This document shows positions 50 to 63,942 of a stretch of DNA of 64,000 bases, piece by piece. The notes beneath the pieces were generated by a model that did not search any database, had not been told where the DNA came from, and worked only from the letters and a program-made list of their open reading frames with translations. Position 1 is the stretch's first letter, and every line of letters starts with the position of its first letter. Position numbers and translations under genes: made by a program. This DNA comes from Parcubacteria group bacterium. GTDB lineage: Bacteria > Patescibacteriota > Minisyncoccia > Phycocordibacterales > DATDWN01. The stretch is from positions 4,013 to 68,012 of the forward strand of contig JBCLGS010000001.1 of the NCBI GenBank assembly GCA_039740895.1, written 5' to 3'.

Positions 50-1156
50 CTATATCCCCTCCTTCTGTAGTATTTCAAGAGCTTTTTTGGCGTCCTTGGA
101 AAGTTTTTTTGGAATCAAAATGTGAACTTTTATCAAAATATCTCCGCGTCTGCCTACATCATATGGAACACCTTTGCCTTTGATACGAAGTATTTCGCCA
201 AATGTAATTCCTTCAGGGATTTTTAGTTTTATTGCACCATCTAAAGTTTGGATATTTTGTTCGCCACCAAGCATTGCTTCCGTCAGCTTGACATTCAAAT
301 CCATTATTAGGTTTTGTCCGTCCCTTCGGAAAAGTGAATGTTTCTTTACATAAACTTTAATATACAAATCCCCCGATTGTCCGAGAGAGATAGCTTCGCC
401 CGCGCCAGAAAGTCTTATCATTTCTCCACTATCAATACCTGCTGGAATTTTAACTTTAATTTCAGTTTCTTTTTTCAATATTCCATGCCCCCGACAAATT
501 CCACATTTTACCTTTGGAACTTTTCCAGAACCATGACAAGCTTCACAAACCACCTGTGATTCAAATTGTCCGAAAAATGTTCTCTTCAATTCGCGAATCT
601 GTCCTTTGCCATTGCAAGTCTGGCATGTGACAAGCTCGCTTCCTTTCTCACTACCCGTTCCAGAACAGTGATCACATTTTGAAACTTTATTAAGTAGAAT
701 TTTTCTTTCAACACCGAAAATAGAATCTTCAAATGAGATTTCAATATCAATGGAAATATCACGGCCGCGTTTTGCTTGCTGTCGTCCTCTTCCACCAAAA
801 ACATCACCGAATATATCTCCTAGGTCAAATTCAAATCCCCCAGAATTTCCTCCTTGAGTAAACTGTGAGAAGTCAAAATCACCAAATCCGCTTGAAAATC
901 CCGAGCCCGTCGAGGGACCAGCACCTTGTCCTCCACCAAATCCAGATGATGGACCTGCTGAACCATATGAGTCATATTGCTGTCTCTTTTTCTCGTCTGA
1001 TAGGATAGAGTAAGCTTCATTTATTTCTTTGAATTTTTCTACATCTCCACCTTTTTTGTCGGGATGAAATTTGTGCGCCAAAGTACGATAGGCCTTTTTA
1101 ATTTCCTCATTATCTGCCTTTTTGTTTACGCCTAGAATGTTGTAGTAGTCTTTCAT
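50..1156 (-). CDS. dnaJ: Molecular chaperone DnaJ
   Basis: J domain with HPD (KFHPDK), Gly/Phe-rich linker, four CxxCxGxG repeats ([32 protein letters not shown]). Confidence 0.95.
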
Positions 1157-2110: not shown

Positions 2111-3202
2111 TCATAGCAACTTCAGAATCACCTCCACTGGTATCTGTTGAGAATTTTTACAATGGAGAGTTTCTGTCGCTACAATCTGCCCAAGCTCAAA
2201 AAACTTATTTGAAGCTTGTCCCCCGCGACAATAATCAAAAAACTTGCACTCTGATCGACATCGCTCAACACCTTGGAGATATTCTCGAACATAGAGTGAT
2301 TTCTGTCCCCGTTCCAATATCGTTGTAAAATCATTCACAAAAAGGTTGCCTGCGATAAAATCGTTGTGAGCGAGTGACTTTGCCCCCAACATTTCGGGAG
2401 AAAGAAGAACAATGTCTCCATTCCATCCAATAGTTGGGAAAATATCTTTCCTGTTCGGGATCGGTTTTGTTTCGCCAATCAACGAACCCATCCATTGGAT
2501 AATATTTGTGAATTCCCTCACTCGTATTTTCGGATTTTCATACCATCTGACGAAGAGTTCTTCCCAAAATCTTGCAACTTCTTCTCCCCCGGCAGAACCA
2601 GAGTTCATACCAAGCCGTTCCTCAAGGTTAACACCAAGAGACTCACACCCAACTTGACAGAAGAAGTCATAAATCTCAGAAGCTTTAAGTAACGATTCAT
2701 TTGTGATCACTGCTATGCAGGTGAAGTTAATATCGTACATCTTCAACAAACTCACGCCACGCATGATTTTGTTAAAAGATTCATTTCCCTGCCAATCCGT
2801 ACGATTAGTATTGAGCAAATGAGGACCGTCGATGCTTACTCCAACTTCGAAATCATAATTTTTGAAAAGTCTACACCACTCTTCATCAATCAATGTCCCA
2901 TTAGTCTGTACACAATGACTAATTTTGCCAGCCTTTCGTAGGTTTTCTAGTGGTGCAATCAGTTCTATAAAATGGTTTGCACCGTATGCTAGAGGTTCGC
3001 CACCATGCCAGACTAAAGGGACATTATATGGAAGATTTAAATCACCAATACCTTTTGCCAGATGTGTGGTCAACCGATTATCCATGCGAAAATTTTTATC
3101 TCTTGATGGGAGATAACAGTATGAGCAATTGAGATTGCAGACAGTTGTCGGTTGCAACACAATTTGCCCTAAAAAGAAAAAATCGTCTTCAAACAGATTC
3201 AC
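2111..3202 (-). CDS. Radical SAM protein with SPASM/twitch-like C-terminal Cys cluster (AslB/anSME-like fold)
   Basis: CNLNCSYC (CxxxCxxC) near the N-terminus, GGEPL, Cys-rich C-terminus CRSECKFFDYC...HC. GTG start preceded by AGGAG. Confidence 0.9.
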   Translation of the reverse strand: MNLFEDDFFFLGQIVLQPTTVCNLNCSYCYLPSRDKNFRMDNRLTTHLAKGIGDLNLPYNVPLVWHGGEPLAYGANHFIELIAPLENLRKAGKISHCVQTNGTLIDEEWCRLFKNYDFEVGVSIDGPHLLNTNRTDWQGNESFNKIMRGVSLLKMYDINFTCIAVITNESLLKASEIYDFFCQVGCESLGVNLEERLGMNSGSAGGEEVARFWEELFVRWYENPKIRVREFTNIIQWMGSLIGETKPIPNRKDIFPTIGWNGDIVLLSPEMLGAKSLAHNDFIAGNLFVNDFTTILERGQKSLYVREYLQGVERCRSECKFFDYCRGGQASNKFFELGQIVATETLHCKNSQQIPVEVILKLL

Positions 3203-3444
3203 ACAAGCTCCTTTCTGCTTATATGCAGACCAATCCTAACTTATTGTCAAAATCACAATTCTAAAAAGCATATTACCATACCTATTTATTATTGTCTAAT
3301 TTAAAATCCCCAGTTTTGTATTGACTTTAAAAACACCTAAAATAATGGCTTTGTTTAGCCGTTTATAGATAAATAGGGATGAGTACATTATTTCCCATAA
3401 TTCTATGTCGCAATTAGAACACGTGTTTTTATATTATATTGTAC

Positions 3445-3690
3445 TTATCCCCATTTCCCCAAATCACTAAGCGAATCAATTTCTATAGGCATGATTTCTT
3501 TACTCTCTAGAATTTTATTCAAATATATTTTTGTCATATCGAGCGGAATAAGTCCTGTAAAATTATGTGCCAATATTATTTCTGCATCTGATACCTCAAA
3601 AACCACACCAACACTTTGCATCACATGAGCATGGTTCGGTCTTTTATATGTCACTAATACAGTATCTCCTTTTTTATAATTTCTTGTCAT
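3445..3690 (-). CDS. Hypothetical protein (81 aa)
   Basis: ORF overlapping the upstream ORF by 17 nt, suggesting an operon. No known motif. Confidence 0.45.
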   Translation of the reverse strand: MTRNYKKGDTVLVTYKRPNHAHVMQSVGVVFEVSDAEIILAHNFTGLIPLDMTKIYLNKILESKEIMPIEIDSLSDLGKWG

Positions 3691-4174
3691 AAAATTCTAA
3701 ATTTGTAATGAAAGATTTTGGAATAGCAATAAAAGTTGGCTTTTCTACAGGATGATTATCGATCTTTATGCCAGTCTTTATTGTCTCTGGGTCTTTTATG
3801 ATAACGGCGTCTGGTGTAACTTTATATAAATTACCTTCACTATACATAACAGTACACTTATCTGACATACTTCCGTTTGTAAAATGAACTATATCTGTCC
3901 AATAAATACCGATATCCGAGCCTATTCGAGAAGATACATCAGATAAATCGGATTGTATCTCTCTATTTTTTCCTTTTAAAATTAAAGCTTGTTTTGGGAT
4001 AAGTAACCCCTCTTCCGCGACTCCATTTTTTTCAGTAAAAGAAATCGCTATGTGTTCACCAGAGGAAATAATGAGATTGCCGATTGCTATATTTGTCTTG
4101 AAATTTGTATGCTTAAGATCCTGTTCCGTATAGTATAGAGCATCTATGTATCTAATAGCTATAATTGTATTCAT
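3674..4174 (-). CDS. Hypothetical protein (166 aa)
   Basis: ORF downstream of the dnaK terminator. No known motif. Confidence 0.5.
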   Translation of the reverse strand: MNTIIAIRYIDALYYTEQDLKHTNFKTNIAIGNLIISSGEHIAISFTEKNGVAEEGLLIPKQALILKGKNREIQSDLSDVSSRIGSDIGIYWTDIVHFTNGSMSDKCTVMYSEGNLYKVTPDAVIIKDPETIKTGIKIDNHPVEKPTFIAIPKSFITNLEFYDKKL

Positions 4175-6665: not shown

Positions 6666-7256
6666 CTATTTATCAAAGTGTAGGACCTTCACTTTCGGTG
6701 CGCGGATTTCCTTTCCATTTAATGAGTAGCCGACACGGAGAACTTCAAGTATTTTTCCATCTTCATCTTCATTTTCTGTTGGCATACTTTCTACAGATTC
6801 ATCTCTGTTGTGGTCGTACTTCTCCCCTACTGGGTCAACAATTTTCAAACCACTCTGTGTAAGAACATTTATGAGTTGAGAGTGAATGTATTCCACACCA
6901 ACTCTCCAATTTTTATCAGCTTTTTCCCAAGCTTCTTTGTTTTTAAAGGCAGATTCAAATGAGTCCAAAACCGTAAGTAGTTCAGCAATAATATCTTCCG
7001 TAGCAAATTTGACCAACTCCTTTTTTGTCTCATCGTCTTTCTTCCGAAGATTTATGAAGTCTGCTTTTTCTCTCTGCCAGCCGTCCAAAAGCTCCGAGTT
7101 TTTCTTCTCAAGTTCTTTTATTCTTTCCTTGAGTTGTTTAACTTTAACAGAATAATCGCTACCTGTCACCTCAGTGTTGTCTTCAAAGATAAAATCATCC
7201 CCTGGGTCGGTATCTATCTCTGGTTCTATGTCTTTTTTTATTTCGTCATCTTTCAT
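6666..7256 (-). CDS. grpE: Nucleotide exchange factor GrpE
   Basis: Acidic N-terminus, coiled coil and a GrpE C-terminal beta domain (ILEVLRVGYSLNGKEIRAPKVKV). Positioned upstream of dnaK. Confidence 0.9.
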   Translation of the reverse strand: MKDDEIKKDIEPEIDTDPGDDFIFEDNTEVTGSDYSVKVKQLKERIKELEKKNSELLDGWQREKADFINLRKKDDETKKELVKFATEDIIAELLTVLDSFESAFKNKEAWEKADKNWRVGVEYIHSQLINVLTQSGLKIVDPVGEKYDHNRDESVESMPTENEDEDGKILEVLRVGYSLNGKEIRAPKVKVLHFDK

Positions 7257-7286
7257 AAAGTGTATATTACCATATCTTTCGTTTTC

Positions 7287-7564
7287 TCAAAACATGTCTT
7301 TTTTGAGACATTGCACAGGATATTAGAAAACAACGACGAAATTAAAGAAAGACCGAAGCACTGTTTGACGAAGTCGTAATCGACGAGGTGAGAAGCGAAG
7401 CTTCGCAAGACCTTGAGTATTTTGTAATCAAAATGCAAAAGGTGTACTGCTCCTGTAAGGAGTTTGCGAGAGGTCTTCGTAATGAGGAAGATTGTTTTCT
7501 TGATATCCGAGCATAGCAAAAGCCCACCAGGGCTTTCCGTGTCTCAAAAAAGACATGTTTTGAG
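7287..7564 (+). repeat. Structured palindromic element C1 carrying the conserved core (7389-7460)
   Basis: 25-bp perfect terminal inverted repeats (ctcaaaacatgtcttttttgagaca / tgtctcaaaaaagacatgttttgag). A 72-nt core is shared with 25727-25802 and 63641-63717. Confidence 0.8.
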
Positions 7565-7568
7565 ATTT

Positions 7569-12481: not shown

Positions 12482-13060
12482 TTACAGCAAAACATTATTG
12501 ATGCATGATTTTTGTTGTGCAAAAATCAAAAACTCCCTATTTTTGCCCTTCTCGCCGAGGATTGGTGATTCTGTTTCAGAAAGGATTTCGAGACCGAGGG
12601 ATTTTAATTTTTCTCTAACTTTTTCCAAAACTTCCGGAATAAACTCCTCCTCTAGCTTCCCTTTACGAATCATTCTTTGCTCCGCCTCATAGTGTGGCTT
12701 TAGCAATACTATAATATGCCCACCTTCTTTCAAATTTAGCAGAACATTTGGAATGACTTTTTCTAATTTGGTCCAGCTGGTGTCCACAGATATTAAGTCT
12801 GGCTTTTCTGGTAGCAAAACATGCATGGCATTGTTTCTCTCTAGCACTACCACTCTTTTGTCCTTTCGAAGCTTCCAGTCCAAAACGCCATAGCCAGTCT
12901 CTACTGCATAAACCTTTAGAGCACCGTTCTGAAGTAGACAATCAACGAAACCGCCCGTACTGGAGCCAAAATCAGCACAAATAAGACCCTTGGGGCTAAA
13001 TCCAAAGGTTTTTAAGGCATGTTCCATCTTCTCCCCGGCACGAGATACATATATAGTCAT
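12482..13060 (-). CDS. tlyA: TlyA/FtsJ-like rRNA methyltransferase
   Basis: SAM-binding DFGSSTGGFVDCLLQNGA. The start is taken at Met44 (13060) because upstream codons are encoded by palindromic element C4. The last codons and stop lie in a 30-nt palindrome shared with mnmA. Confidence 0.75.
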   Translation of the reverse strand: MTIYVSRAGEKMEHALKTFGFSPKGLICADFGSSTGGFVDCLLQNGALKVYAVETGYGVLDWKLRKDKRVVVLERNNAMHVLLPEKPDLISVDTSWTKLEKVIPNVLLNLKEGGHIIVLLKPHYEAEQRMIRKGKLEEEFIPEVLEKVREKLKSLGLEILSETESPILGEKGKNREFLIFAQQKSCINNVLL

Positions 13061-13260
13061 TTGAATATATTTTTTAAGACACGCATAAAGCCTTGGTTGG
13101 CTTTTGCTATGCTCGGATATCAAGAAAACAATATACTCGATACATAGCCCTTTCGCAAACTCCTCGTCGAGTACGACTTCGTCAAACAATGCTTCGGGCT
13201 TATTTCATCTTCGTATTTGTTTTCTAATATCCTGTGCAATGTCTTAAAAAATATATTCAA
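13061..13260 (-). repeat. Structured palindromic element C4 (homolog of C1, inverted, core absent)
   Basis: 21-bp perfect terminal inverted repeat ttgaatatattttttaagaca / tgtcttaaaaaatatattcaa. The reverse complement aligns with both C1 arms but joins cgacgagg directly to agtttgcga. Confidence 0.8.
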
Positions 13261-13265
13261 ATGTC

Positions 13266-24167: not shown

Positions 24168-25586
24168 TTATAGCGTTTTTTCGATAATTCCTCCGCCAAG
24201 ACACTTATCCCCCCGCCCGCCTCGACCATGAGAGCGTGTCGGGCAGGCATCATACAAAACAGCAGACTGTCCAACCGCCACGCCATTTTGAGGTTTGTCA
24301 AACTTAATTACATAACATGCAGGACTTTTTTTTGAGCTATCGAAAAAATGTTCTTGCTTACGCAAAACATTATTTTCGATCCGATTTTCCTTGTTGGAAA
24401 ATCGTCTGCGTTCTCGTGCAGAAGGCTCTCTTCTGCAAGTCCTACTAATAGTGCATTTTTGTTTTTCTTGACGATATCTTATTCGGACTAGACATTTTAG
24501 AGGAAGTTTTGGTTCGGTGTTTGAAATAAAATGCATATCTGAAACAACAACTTCAGAAGTGCTGAAAACATCCTCAGCTTCAGTTTCTTTATTTGCGACA
24601 GTAATGGTATTTTTATCCAAATCTTTTGCTACCACAAAATACCGAGGCTCATTTGGAGTTTTTTTCAAGATATTATATCCCTGTCTAGCACCTATGGTGT
24701 AAAAAATTGCACCATCGTGATATCCAATAACTTCACTACTAGTATTCAAAACATCTCCCCGTTTAGTTTTTATAAAGTGAGATAAAAATTCACGCATATC
24801 AAGTTTGCCCAAAAAACAAACCCCTTGGCTGTCTTTCTTTGTGGCTGTTGGTAAACCAAACTTTTCCGCGAGCTTCCGAACCTCTGGCTTTGTCATCCCA
24901 CCAATCGGAAAAAGTGAACGAGAAAGCTGTTCTTGATTCAGTGTGTATAAAAAATATGATTGATCTTTATTTTTATCAACTGATTCATGGAGTTGATACT
25001 CGTAATTAAAAATCTCTTTCTCGTCATATCCTTTGGGGAGCACGGATATTTTTCTGTTGAAAAATTCCTCAAGTCTCGCCTGCCCGGCTTGCGAAGTCTC
25101 CCCAAAGGATACGACATCAACGAGATTTTTTTTACTTATCAATCCTATTTGACTATAGTGACCAGTGGCAATAAAATCTGCACCCATCTCCAGTGCCTTT
25201 TTTAAAAAGACACCAAATTTTACATATTTATTACAAAAAACATCTGGGTTTGGAGTTCGTCCCATTTTATACTCTCTTATCATATAGTCAGCAACTTCTT
25301 TCTTGTATTCAGCTTCACAATCCATGGTCAGGAAAGGAACACCGAGTGTGGCGCAAACCCGCATAGCACTTCGTCTTTCTTCCTTCCAATCACATGGCAA
25401 AAAATCTGGATGCCAGGTCTTCAAAAATACACCTGTCACGTCGAAACCATCCCTAAACCCCTCTGGGGTCGGGCGACCAAATAATTTTTCAAAATTATTT
25501 GGTGTAGCCTTTTGTAAGAGCGCCAAAGCCACAGAGCTATCCACTCCACCTGAGACACCTACGAACACCTTTGGCTTTTTATTCAT
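24168..25586 (-). CDS. mnmA: tRNA 2-thiouridine(34) synthase MnmA with in-frame insertions
   Basis: PP-loop VGVSGGVDSSVA, GHY and a C-terminal LGGGII. It is longer than I recall for typical MnmA, owing to inserted segments. Confidence 0.9.
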   Translation of the reverse strand: MNKKPKVFVGVSGGVDSSVALALLQKATPNNFEKLFGRPTPEGFRDGFDVTGVFLKTWHPDFLPCDWKEERRSAMRVCATLGVPFLTMDCEAEYKKEVADYMIREYKMGRTPNPDVFCNKYVKFGVFLKKALEMGADFIATGHYSQIGLISKKNLVDVVSFGETSQAGQARLEEFFNRKISVLPKGYDEKEIFNYEYQLHESVDKNKDQSYFLYTLNQEQLSRSLFPIGGMTKPEVRKLAEKFGLPTATKKDSQGVCFLGKLDMREFLSHFIKTKRGDVLNTSSEVIGYHDGAIFYTIGARQGYNILKKTPNEPRYFVVAKDLDKNTITVANKETEAEDVFSTSEVVVSDMHFISNTEPKLPLKCLVRIRYRQEKQKCTISRTCRREPSARERRRFSNKENRIENNVLRKQEHFFDSSKKSPACYVIKFDKPQNGVAVGQSAVLYDACPTRSHGRGGRGDKCLGGGIIEKTL

Positions 25587-25623
25587 TCACAAGTTATAAC
25601 ATAAAATTAGAAGATGGTAAAAT

Positions 25624-25865
25624 AAAACAAACTAAATAATACCTTTTCTGAGACCCCGCAGACCTGAAGCAGGTTTTGTCAACGACCCGACTGAAAGGAG
25701 GGCTCATTGACAAATTCAGGTCGAGGTGAGAAGTGATAGTATCACTTCGCAAGACCTTGAGCGTCTGTAGTCAGATGCGAAAGGTGTACTGCTCCTGTAA
25801 GGAGAGAATTCAAAACCCGCTGGGGTTTTGAATGTTCTCAGAAAAGGTATTATTTAGTTTGTTTT
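25624..25865 (+). repeat. Structured palindromic element C2 carrying the conserved core (25727-25802)
   Basis: ~30-bp terminal inverted repeats (aaaacaaactaaataataccttttctgaga / tctcagaaaaggtattatttagtttgtttt). Its end overlaps the mltG stop. Confidence 0.8.
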
Positions 25866-26883
25866 ATTTGAGATATTTTTGCTTGTTAATAATATGCTCA
25901 GCAAAAGTTTTTGCGTAGTGAATTGTGCCATCTTTTTCTGTGAGAAAATAAAGATAATTTGTTTTTATAGGTGTATATGCGGCAATGATAGCATCGATAC
26001 CGGGGTTTGATATTGGTCCTATAGGAAGACCTTTATTTGTGTAAGTATTGTAAGGAGAATCTATTTTCAAATCATCCAAAGTTAATTCGTATGTATTTTT
26101 TCCATTTATATATTTAAAAGTCGCATCAACTTGTAGTGGCATACCGATAGCAATTCTTTTCCATAAAATACCTGCCACTATTTGTTTGTCTTTAGGAAGT
26201 GCCTCACCTTCAAGGATTGAAGCCATAATGATGATATCACTAATTGATTTTTTCGTCGTTTGAAGATTTGCAACTTGGAGAATTTTCTTATTGAAATTAT
26301 TCTTCATCAATTCTATAATGTCTGCAGGTTTCGCACTCATCGATACAAAATATGTATCAGGAAATAAATAGCCTTCATATTTTTTGGCTGAATCAACGAA
26401 TTCTTTTTTATTAAATTTCAATAAATTTTTCTCAAGATAATCCCCTATCTGAAATACATTCCAACCTTCTGGTATTGTAATTTTAATTGTATTGATTTGA
26501 AATACTCCATTAACCAGTCTGCGTGCCAACATGAACGAACTTTCTTTCTTGGACAACAAATAATCACCAGCGATAACCTTTTTTTCACCACCAAAAAGAA
26601 TAACCAGCGAACGGAAAACTAATTCCGAACCAATAATATTCTTATTCTTCAAATCAACTGTAATGGACTGGAGAGATTCTCCAAAGCGTATTGTCAAAAC
26701 ATCTCCAACAGGAAAATTTGTTGGTGTAGTGAACAAAAGAACAGAAATAAATGCAAAAATAAAAGCTGTAATAAAAGCTAAAATTGCTTTTGGTCTGGTA
26801 ACTTTCTGATATTCCACATACACCTTAACCTTTTCAGACCAAGATTTCAAAAAAATAATATATTTTGGGTCTTCCATAGGCAA
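25864..26883 (-). CDS. mltG: Endolytic transglycosylase MltG (YceG-like)
   Basis: N-terminal TM and a YceG domain (LEGYLFPDTY, ASILEGEA, SPYNTYTNKGLPIGPISNPG). Confidence 0.88.
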   Translation of the reverse strand: MPMEDPKYIIFLKSWSEKVKVYVEYQKVTRPKAILAFITAFIFAFISVLLFTTPTNFPVGDVLTIRFGESLQSITVDLKNKNIIGSELVFRSLVILFGGEKKVIAGDYLLSKKESSFMLARRLVNGVFQINTIKITIPEGWNVFQIGDYLEKNLLKFNKKEFVDSAKKYEGYLFPDTYFVSMSAKPADIIELMKNNFNKKILQVANLQTTKKSISDIIIMASILEGEALPKDKQIVAGILWKRIAIGMPLQVDATFKYINGKNTYELTLDDLKIDSPYNTYTNKGLPIGPISNPGIDAIIAAYTPIKTNYLYFLTEKDGTIHYAKTFAEHIINKQKYLK

Positions 26884-36853: not shown

Positions 36854-36939
36854 AATCAGACTATATATTCAAGTCAAAGTATTGTATATTAATTTTACAA
36901 CTAAATAGTTAGTAGTAGCCTAAACCAGTAATGATACAG

Positions 36940-37052
36940 GTATGGCAAAGGTCCAGTTAGACATCAAAGAACCAATCATGGGGTTGTCTAACTGGCCATA
37001 TCGGGAAACCGATATGAGTGACTTCGGTCACTACCTATGTGGTGGGCTTTTT
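36940..37052 (+). ncRNA. Candidate structured RNA or leader (unclassified)
   Basis: Three hairpins: an 11-bp stem 36953-36963/36985-36995; catatcgg-GAAA-ccgatatg (36997-37016); agtgac-UUCG-gtcact (37017-37032). A GGGCUUUUU tract follows. Confidence 0.45.
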
Positions 37053-63318: not shown

Positions 63319-63391
63319 GGGCCCGTAGCTCATCTGGTAGAGCACATCATTTGCAATGATGGGGTGGCAGGTTCGAGTCCTGTCGGGTCCA
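63319..63391 (+). tRNA. tRNA-Ala(UGC)
   Basis: Folded by hand as a cloverleaf: acceptor GGGCCCG/CGGGUCC with G3-U70, anticodon loop UUUGCAA, T-loop UUCGAGU, discriminator A. CCA is not encoded. Confidence 0.9.
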
Positions 63392-63583
63392 CAGAAAAAT
63401 CCGCATTACAGCGGATATTTTTGGTGGTGTTTGTTTGAAAAAGTCAGAACCCATTTCGAGCAGAACCCCTAGCTTCGCACGCTCCGCGTGCGTGGTGGCT
63501 TGAAACTCAATCGTACGCTCCGATTGCGCCTCGGGCGCGCTCGCGGACTCGCGCGGGCAAGGGAACACTTGTGCAGAGCCAAA

Positions 63584-63746
63584 ACCCAAAAATTTTCCTT
63601 CCTTTCTGATTTAATTCGGCGGGGGGTGTGGGGGGTGAGGTGCGACAACTGGAAGCACCGCAAGATCTTGAGCATTTTGTAATCAAAATGTGAAAGGTGT
63701 ACAGTTTCTGTAAGAAAACGACAAAAAATGGAAAGGAAATTTTTGG
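63584..63746 (+). repeat. Structured element C3 carrying the conserved core (63641-63717)
   Basis: Outer stem ccaaaaattttccttcc / ggaaaggaaatttttgg. The core shares GCAAGAYCUUGAG, the attttgtaatcaaaat hairpin and AAAGGUGUAC with C1 and C2. Confidence 0.7.
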
Positions 63747-63942
63747 TTTTGCTTCGTCGCTTCAGTCTCCGAAAAGAGCAATCTAATTATGACATTTTTG
63801 TTTGCTCTTTTCTACATCTTCGCGGCGACCCGAGGCGCATACAATTCGGTTTGCGTTGTTGTTTGTAGCTACTTGGCGAAAATCGTGAATTTGATTTCGC
63901 AATTTTCTTTTTTCAATCCTCCAAATTTTTCTTTAGTGGCTT

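Follow-up and report, generated by a model that had tools for sequence, protein, structure and literature searches.

Correia/NEMIS and ERIC/IRU elements are non-coding intergenic repeats that form long hairpins, are found in either orientation and are co-transcribed with their neighbours; Correia hairpins are substrates of RNase III. Both a long and a short version of these elements exist, the long one having a discrete internal segment of ~50–70 bp in addition, like the filled and empty host repeats described below. They are genus- or family-restricted, feature conserved terminal inverted repeats (Correia also a TA duplication) and are without a deeply conserved, covarying RNA core, whereas in the present element the terminal arms vary per copy and the inner module, here called the core, is near-invariant across a superphylum. 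REP/REPIN sequences and IS200/IS605 PATEs have in common with the core their strand-specific hairpins, dispersed intergenic copies and precise insertion and excision without target duplication; however, they feature a single imperfect hairpin rather than a three-hairpin junction, and neither a RAYT/TnpA gene beside any copy nor a conserved REP head was found for the core. Small ribozymes carried on repeats are like the core in size (50–90 nt), in having invariant junctions and covarying stems of variable length, and in being dispersed and multi-copy without gene association, but the core matches no Rfam ribozyme model and any catalysis by it would be putative. tRNAs and tRNA-like structures (YrlA/Y RNA modules, viral TLS) have a four-way cloverleaf-like connectivity in common with the core. 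Additionally, the closing helix of tRNA-linked variants of the core contains the 3' strand of the adjacent tRNA exactly, and copies are co-oriented downstream of tRNA genes, but the Rfam models for tRNA and Y RNA miss the core and in most copies the arms are either unlike tRNA or absent. The rRNA IVS are long hairpins at helix tips that are excised by RNase III and are present or absent between relatives, which resembles the core, although they are located in rRNA genes and the core in intergenic DNA and other repeats. Patescibacteria account for a large part of the diversity of bacteria and have tiny genomes; to our knowledge, almost no non-coding RNA biology beyond introns has been described for them.

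The window, which is the whole 64-kb stretch of DNA analysed, features three copies of the core, C1, C2 and C3. A covariance model was derived from 94 relatives of the core and the window was searched with filters off. The model gave 89.3 bits for C1 (7386–7464), 90.8 bits for C2 (25724–25806) and 87.0 bits for C3 (63633–63719), all on the plus strand. The runner-up scored 13.6 bits, so the window holds exactly three copies, and loose patterns together with the filter-off search did not find a fourth. An earlier sequence-only reading had placed three plus-strand copies at these positions and written out their hairpins, and both the places and the hairpin sequences were correct. The alignment of C1–C3 has 56 invariant columns. 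The features of the three units, and of two core-less repeats to which they are compared, are as follows.

7285–7565, plus strand: whole C1 unit, a host-1 repeat bearing the core, with arms at 7285–7310 and 7540–7565
7389–7460, plus strand: C1 core as an insertion, 72 nt absent from the collinear hosts H4 and L116
7389–7407, plus strand: P1 of C1, UGA-G AAGC GAA GCUU C-GCA
7410–7443, plus strand: P2 of C1, with the ACCUU/AAGGU base, tandem G.A/A.G and a variable distal stem and loop
7444–7449, plus strand: linker GUACNG of C1, invariant, 5' of P3
7450–7462, plus strand: P3 of C1, a 5-bp stem with a GUA triloop
11871–11988, plus strand: H5, a core-less host of the second type, a rod-like repeat (..CCGAGGCGG / ACGAGAAUUUUG..)
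13058–13263, minus strand: H4, a host-1 copy that lacks the core, with a 464-aa ORF on one side and an FtsJ-like gene on the other
25620–25869, plus strand: whole C2 unit, with arms at 25620–25653 and 25836–25869 and a host-1-relative frame
25724–25806, plus strand: C2 core by covariance model
63582–63750, plus strand: C3 unit, with imperfect arms at 63582–63605 and 63727–63750
63633–63719, plus strand: C3 core by covariance model

The core is laid out as RGG, P1, AG, P2, GUACNG and P3 and is ~72–90 nt long. P1 is closed by a U-A pair, a G-C pair and a conserved A.G (UGA..GCA), and its tip is one of several interchangeable hairpin types. P2 features an invariant ACCUU/AAGGU base, tandem G.A/A.G pairs and a variable stem above them, and P3 consists of 5 bp and a GNA triloop. 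RNAalifold recovered the three helices from a MAFFT alignment of 94 sequences, in which all three show compensatory changes. Pair counting on this alignment found 97.5% of 2049 cells paired, compared to 84.5% in shuffles, and 272 double-change cells, compared to 60 in shuffles. The covariation score was 0.402, as opposed to 0.150 in shuffles and at most 0.108 when the partners were slid by 1–3 columns. Both-side changes were found at 4 of the 6 pairs of P1 and at all 5 pairs of P3, which is 98.7% paired. The core pairs include 58 G-U and 7 A-C, and this excess of G-U over A-C assigns the structure to the plus strand of the window. The larger alignment thus bears out the three helices, and the compensatory changes and the G-U count support what had been proposed from three copies, a conserved structured element on the plus strand.

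There were two points on which the proposed fold had to be revised. The middle hairpin does have a covarying stem, but it is only the tip of the longer P2, ACCUU-GA-GC...GC-GA-AAGGU. As a consequence, AAAGGU, which had been taken as a competing partner of ACCUU, is its regular partner within P2. The putative switch would pair CGAGGU with ACCUUG, and the 94 copies speak neither for nor against it. ACCUU is invariant; all six pairs between CGAGGU and ACCUUG are possible in 29 of the 94 copies and only two in 17. CGAGG is host sequence at the insertion site and lies outside the module. The 5' flank of the core is diverse across copies, with only RGGU before GAG conserved, and this diversity rules out a universal CGAG target. 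An obligatory hairpin directly 5' of the core was also ruled out (44% of copies compared to 31% of shuffles).

Approximately 35 nt of the core are invariant and are located in the junctions and internal loops, whereas the stems, which vary in length, covary freely. These invariant nucleotides and the three covarying helices imply that either a conserved partner or an activity of the module itself maintains it. With any closing helix added, the core would model as a cloverleaf-like junction. The core is a self-contained structured module that acts single-stranded, most likely as RNA; the two lines that favour RNA over ssDNA as the acting strand are the tRNA co-orientation and the RNA-like motifs. 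The P1 types can be compared at two orthologous-looking loci, L015 4391–4470 and L032 2223–2305, which have the same downstream protein family, P3 and 3' flank. P1 has an 11-nt loop in one of these cores and a GGGA loop in the other, which suggests that P1 is exchanged between copies.

The core is a discrete insertion in rod-shaped, palindromic, multi-copy intergenic repeats and is not a free-standing gene. The C1 unit features an inner conserved helix, AUUAGAAAACAA with UUGUUUUCUUGAU, and a small 3' hairpin, GCCC-ACCA-GGGC. H4 has 24-bp perfect arms, and its apex, ..CGACGAGG / AGUUUGCGA.., is the empty site of C1. L116 is the rpsI-grpE spacer of another Paceibacteria-type genome whose GrpE is 73% identical, the nearest relative. 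This spacer is core-less and is closed by an outer helix of 26 perfect bp whose sequence is unrelated, and its inner sequence and that of C1 share ..AUUAGAAAACAACGACGAAAU..GAAGCAYUGUYUGACGAAGU..ACGAGG / AGUUUGCGAG..GAUUGUUUUCUUGAU.. A four-way alignment shows that C1 is an H4/L116-type host plus 72 nt (7389–7460), with a 3-nt ambiguity at the insertion boundary that comes from an AGG repeat. The C2 unit shares the host-1 frame on its 5' side (a T-run and GAGACCCCGCAG, ..TTTTCTGAGACCCCGCAG..) and on its 3' side (the small hairpin and UUCUCAGAAAA, ..TTCTCAGAAAA). The palindromes around the copies had been called otherwise unrelated, which is wrong for C1 and C2, as both belong to one recurrent host repeat family.

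Host-1 has a second core site, 3' of ..UUCUUGAnnnCGAG, that is used in L047, L072 and L093, and in L082 and L086 a core stands in place of the host-1 apex. The second type of host (..CGAGGCGG / ..) is empty in H5 and in L043, and its frame carries a core in L001, L010, L017, L021, L043, L048, L060, L075, L099, L102 and L115. In L105 the core is located in the variable loop of a copy of a tRNA-Ile 3' half, after GACGAGG. Precise presence and absence of the core was therefore found at four kinds of site. In three of the four filled/empty comparisons the core lies 3' of CGAG(G), and none of the four features a consistent target-site duplication (0–3 nt of ambiguity, or replacement). A terminal repeat conserved at the core ends was not found. 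The host repeats are Patescibacteria-specific and are also found core-less. These filled and empty sites directly support the earlier suggestion of a mobile module. No exact S9 and GrpE protein matches that could be used for strain-level polymorphism at C1 are on record. The rpsI-grpE spacer of a third genome (L119 1862–2501, 639 nt) has no core and no obvious host-1 frame, and it contains an ORF-like stretch when read on the minus strand.

The outer inverted repeats reported from the window are real and are longer than had been stated. They comprise 26/26 bp in C1, 34/34 bp in C2 (perfect, within a 59-nt repeat of 83%) and 24 nt at 83% in C3, of which 12 nt are perfect. The whole units of C1 and C2 are far more stably folded than their shuffles (z of −10.0 and −15.1), and for C3 the difference is less clear (z of −3.0). 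Across 26 units, the 514 arm positions consist of 492 Watson-Crick pairs, 6 G-T, 6 A-C and 10 others; G-T and A-C are equal, so the arms are without strand asymmetry. The arms also vary between copies of one genome (C1 compared to H4, and L031 compared to L053). In the L031/L053 paralogues a 6-nt block differs within otherwise identical arms and is perfectly matched in both arms. We infer that the arms are DNA-level palindromes of the hosts, which templated correction keeps perfect or lengthens. Only ~18% of copies have a long outer helix that is significant (~16 of 88 with at least 13 bp), which rules out a universal long outer helix as part of the motif. Arms acting as guides or spacers were rejected, since none of the arm sequences is matched elsewhere in the window and IMG/VR gave nothing for the 24-nt C2 arm. 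Eleven nt of the C1 arms (ATGTCTTTTTT at 7294–7304 and AAAAAAGACAT at 7546–7556) recur at 7228–7238, which lies within the first codons of grpE on the minus strand. This recurrence could be chance in AT-rich DNA, or the arm could have been copied from the flank.

When a single genome from each GTDB species was scanned with a pattern, at least 115 loci were found, with about 100 true members among the matches listed. Nearly all of the matches listed are Patescibacteria MAGs, and the groups among them are Saccharibacteria, Paceibacteria and Zambryski-, Nomura-, Taylor-, Kaiser- and Yonath-bacteria; mis-binning probably accounts for the few short contigs assigned outside Patescibacteria. The covariance model gave 112 matches in 709 kb, with up to 4–5 copies per 8 kb. 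Near-identical copies include the L072 pair (97% over 197 nt) and L018/L069 (95% over 179 nt). Paralogues within a genome share only about 170–200 nt, which makes the repeated unit small, though it exceeds the core. Copies are also kept at orthologous loci across genomes (L016/L098 and L015/L032). No core was found in the viral contigs of IMG/VR, where 5 regex matches all fail the covariance model, and a phage origin was rejected on this IMG/VR result.

Several loci show unusual arrangements of the core. In L037 (1–3800; Saccharibacteria, CAYGHQ010000002.1) 4–5 cores lie within 8 kb and two of them flank rpsP, and positions 2465–3731 form a stretch of ~1.27 kb without a convincing ORF that features two cores in opposite orientation. 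The cores of L003 at 739–819 (plus) and 876–961 (minus) are head-to-head and 57 nt apart, so that the pair forms an inverted repeat. L060 (~4040–4100, minus) and L099 (~830–890, plus) feature a truncated 5' half-core, GUGAG-P1-CGCAAGACC, joined directly to a host-2 frame that bears a complete second core, and these are nested or recombined. Cores cut at contig or stored-locus ends (pooled) were found at L036 5673–5741, L057 7924–8000, L067 1–66, L071 1–74 and L073 1–70. The end-cut cores fit a multi-copy repeat that breaks MAG assemblies, and where assemblies of CPR MAGs break, the core repeat is likely to be responsible.

The element is new to the catalogues searched, and the finding is real. 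Rfam 15 at gathering thresholds found only a LOOT RNA (36917–37032) and one tRNA in the whole window and nothing over the cores, and relaxing the limit to E of 5–10 over C1, C2, C3, H4 and H5 also gave nothing over the cores. The novelty that had been proposed therefore stands as far as Rfam 15 is concerned, since none of its families matches the cores even at E≤10. A 'Bacillus-plasmid' match upstream of the C2 core (20.5 bits, gathering threshold 31) was set aside as chance. A literature search by taxon, topic and literal conserved sequence found no description of the core module. The group I introns reported in Patescibacteria tRNAs are anticodon-loop introns and are distinct from the core element (PMC13011429).

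The described families were compared to the core one at a time. The hammerhead ribozyme features CUGANGA and GAAA boxes, a three-helix junction and an NUH cleavage site. It has no Rfam match in the cores at E≤10, the UGA-[stem]-GAAA of P2 is plain two-strand tandem G.A, and stem I and the C17 position are absent. Twister, twister-sister, pistol, hatchet, hairpin and HDV were rejected for want of an Rfam match at the same E-value. The failure of the core to match hammerhead, twister and pistol by eye is thus upheld by the Rfam models. The core is not a tRNA: it is missed by ARAGORN and RF00005 and is without D-loop and T-loop features, and a tRNA-type elbow is impossible because the P3 loop is 3 nt. 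[quoted passage not shown] The element is non-coding and multi-copy with near-identical dispersed copies, as MITEs are, but family-wide terminal inverted repeats are absent (host-1 shares only an inner frame, the T-run and GAGAC), and so is a target-site duplication of fixed length. REP/REPIN was rejected because the arms share no sequence and a RAYT-like neighbour was not found. As for integron attC sites, the R''/L''-L'/R' boxes (GTTRRRY) are absent from the perfect-palindrome arms, and the copies are located among housekeeping genes and not in arrays.

The genes that flank C1 encode Ribosomal_S9 and GrpE and those that flank C2 encode MnmA-type tRNA_Me_trans and YceG/MltG. All four genes are on the minus strand, which agrees with the earlier statement that C1 and C2 are antisense to the grpE/rpsI and mnmA/mltG operons. 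The only promoter-like site is weak, a TG-extended −10 (TAAAAT) that ends at 25623, beside the 5' arm of C2; apart from this site, little could be learned from scans for promoters and terminators, and the copies share no conserved promoter. Clustering of 191 flanking ORFs gave no enriched protein family, and, with respect to IS200/IS605 PATEs or omega-RNA, no recurrent neighbour family was found among these ORFs (loci only). Genes for Y1 (tnpA), RAYT, TnpB and integrase are not enriched beside any of 128 copies, and a linked transposase, reverse transcriptase or recombinase was not found. Relative to co-directional flanking genes for proteins, 21 cores are antisense and 14 are sense, a mixed pattern.

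tRNA genes recur as neighbours of the core. A tRNA is located within 300 nt of 32 of 128 cores, where 9.5 are expected (maximum of 21 in 1000 permutations), and 23 of 128 have a same-strand tRNA upstream within 300 nt, where 2.2 are expected (maximum of 8 in 1000 permutations). In the window, a tRNA-Ala (63319–63392) on the same strand ends 241 nt upstream of the C3 core. In at least 10 tRNA-linked loci the arms are the adjacent tRNA 3' end, and the order after the tRNA is inverted copy, module, direct copy. The inverted copy covers the T-loop and the 3' part of the T-stem (11–18 nt) and the direct copy the tRNA 3' end (12–25 nt). Lower-scoring variants in L016, L089, L018 and the first L001 copy share a tRNA-armed fold that consists of a 5' acceptor-strand copy, P1, an anti-T segment, P2, GUAC, P3 and the tRNA 3' strand. 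ARAGORN found 72 tRNAs in the loci, none of which overlaps a core, and the only RF00005 match in the window is 63319–63391, with none over the cores. A terminator-like hairpin precedes some tRNA-linked copies (L048, L016 and C3, the last at 63399–63416). The tRNA-end repeats may be tRNA mimicry, or they may be the scar of a tRNA-targeting integrase with att-like direct repeats.

The reading that we favour, on sequence grounds and with a little less than an even chance of being right, is that of a modular, mobile structured-RNA element that is carried on palindromic, rod-like repeats, depends on read-through for its expression and undergoes processing at its stems. The unit would be transcribed by read-through, especially from upstream tRNA genes. 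A long perfect stem would be an RNase III-type processing signal and would set free an RNA with the core as its cap, and the tRNA-derived stem of the tRNA-linked copies would be a signal of the RNase P/Z type. A conserved trans-acting factor or an intrinsic chemical activity would keep the invariant junction nucleotides, and such an activity might also be behind the copying of the core into new hairpins. The differing outer arms would be DNA palindromes of the host repeats, outside the conserved RNA. Mixed orientation, the antisense position of C1 and C2 with just one weak promoter-like site, terminator-like hairpins ahead of some tRNA-linked copies, the lack of a linked mobility gene, of a target-site duplication and of a terminal repeat that would define the core, its diverse 5' flank and the small share of copies with a significant long outer helix are points against this mobile RNA, and ~35 invariant nt across a whole superphylum are unusual for a purely selfish repeat. 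The depth of core conservation and the orthologous retention at L016/L098 and L015/L032 also suit an unlikely alternative, in which the copies are trans-acting small RNA genes, tRNA-like paralogues whose core is a protein-binding or tRNA-like scaffold, whose closing helix is a variable analogue of the acceptor stem and for which mobility and hosts are incidental. The cloverleaf-like connectivity (2 nt, P1, 2 nt, P2, 6 nt, P3, 0 nt) speaks for such genes, as does the closing helix of tRNA-linked copies, which reproduces the tRNA acceptor and T 3' strand (L016, L089 and L018). Hosts that exist both with and without the core are difficult to reconcile with a gene, however, as are the missing significant closing helix in most copies, the mixed orientation and the lack of a conserved promoter; additionally, the cores go unrecognised by ARAGORN and by the tRNA model of Rfam, and P3 has a 3-nt loop.

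The core may also act purely as DNA, as folded ssDNA that is recognised in trans by an HUH transposase, RAYT or recombinase and has no RNA role. Precise insertion or absence without target duplication, the position 3' of CGAG(G) in 3 of 4 filled/empty comparisons, strand-specific hairpins, arms that are perfect Watson-Crick helices with no G-T bias, and tRNA 3'-end direct repeats that resemble att sites are all consistent with this. On the other side, Y1, RAYT, TnpB and integrase genes are not enriched beside the 128 copies, and both the R/L boxes of attC and a conserved REP head are absent. The tandem G.A, the GNA triloop and the long invariant unpaired stretches kept across the superphylum are also RNA-like. 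IS608-type elements use the exposed lagging-strand template. The GC skew is −0.004 to −0.20 throughout the window, so the plus strand is C-rich. This places C1–C3 on the template of the leading strand and speaks against a mechanism like that of IS608. We judge the DNA-only explanation distinctly unlikely. Approximately 35 invariant junction and internal-loop nucleotides set among covarying stems of variable length, in many dispersed copies with no gene association, would also be expected of a new small self-cleaving, splicing or ligating ribozyme carried on repeats. Its active site would be the junction and the tandem G.A, and its reaction site the sharp 5' boundary between G and UGAG, which would suit the precise 5' and 3' boundaries of the filled/empty comparisons. 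Yet none of the Rfam ribozyme models matches at E≤10 and the sequence marks no cleavage site, and we regard a ribozyme of this kind as quite improbable. A more speculative proposal, which we consider doubtful, is a Patescibacteria-specific, programmable, promoter-less RNA cassette with arms copied from local DNA; it would be excised by tRNA- or dsRNA-processing enzymes and would yield tRNA-end mimics or decoys, or a self-inserting RNA.

A genome of roughly the 1-Mb class has several copies of the core in 64 kb, and the core is conserved from Saccharibacteria to Paceibacteria. The modular insertion and the tRNA-derived arms are concrete, testable handles on the element. A catalytic or guide-like core would be a new class, and even a purely selfish repeat would still be the first interspersed repeat family with deep conservation to be described in the CPR radiation.

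Two further structured features were observed in the window. Within the mnmA coding region, at 25027–25111, the two arms of an inverted repeat (TATCCTTTGGGGAG; 14 bp, perfect) are separated by 57 nt, and the repeat has no visible relation to the core or the host family. The LOOT RNA (RF03000) on the plus strand at 36917–37032 scores 73.7 bits against a gathering threshold of 46.4 and is a second orphan structured RNA in the window.
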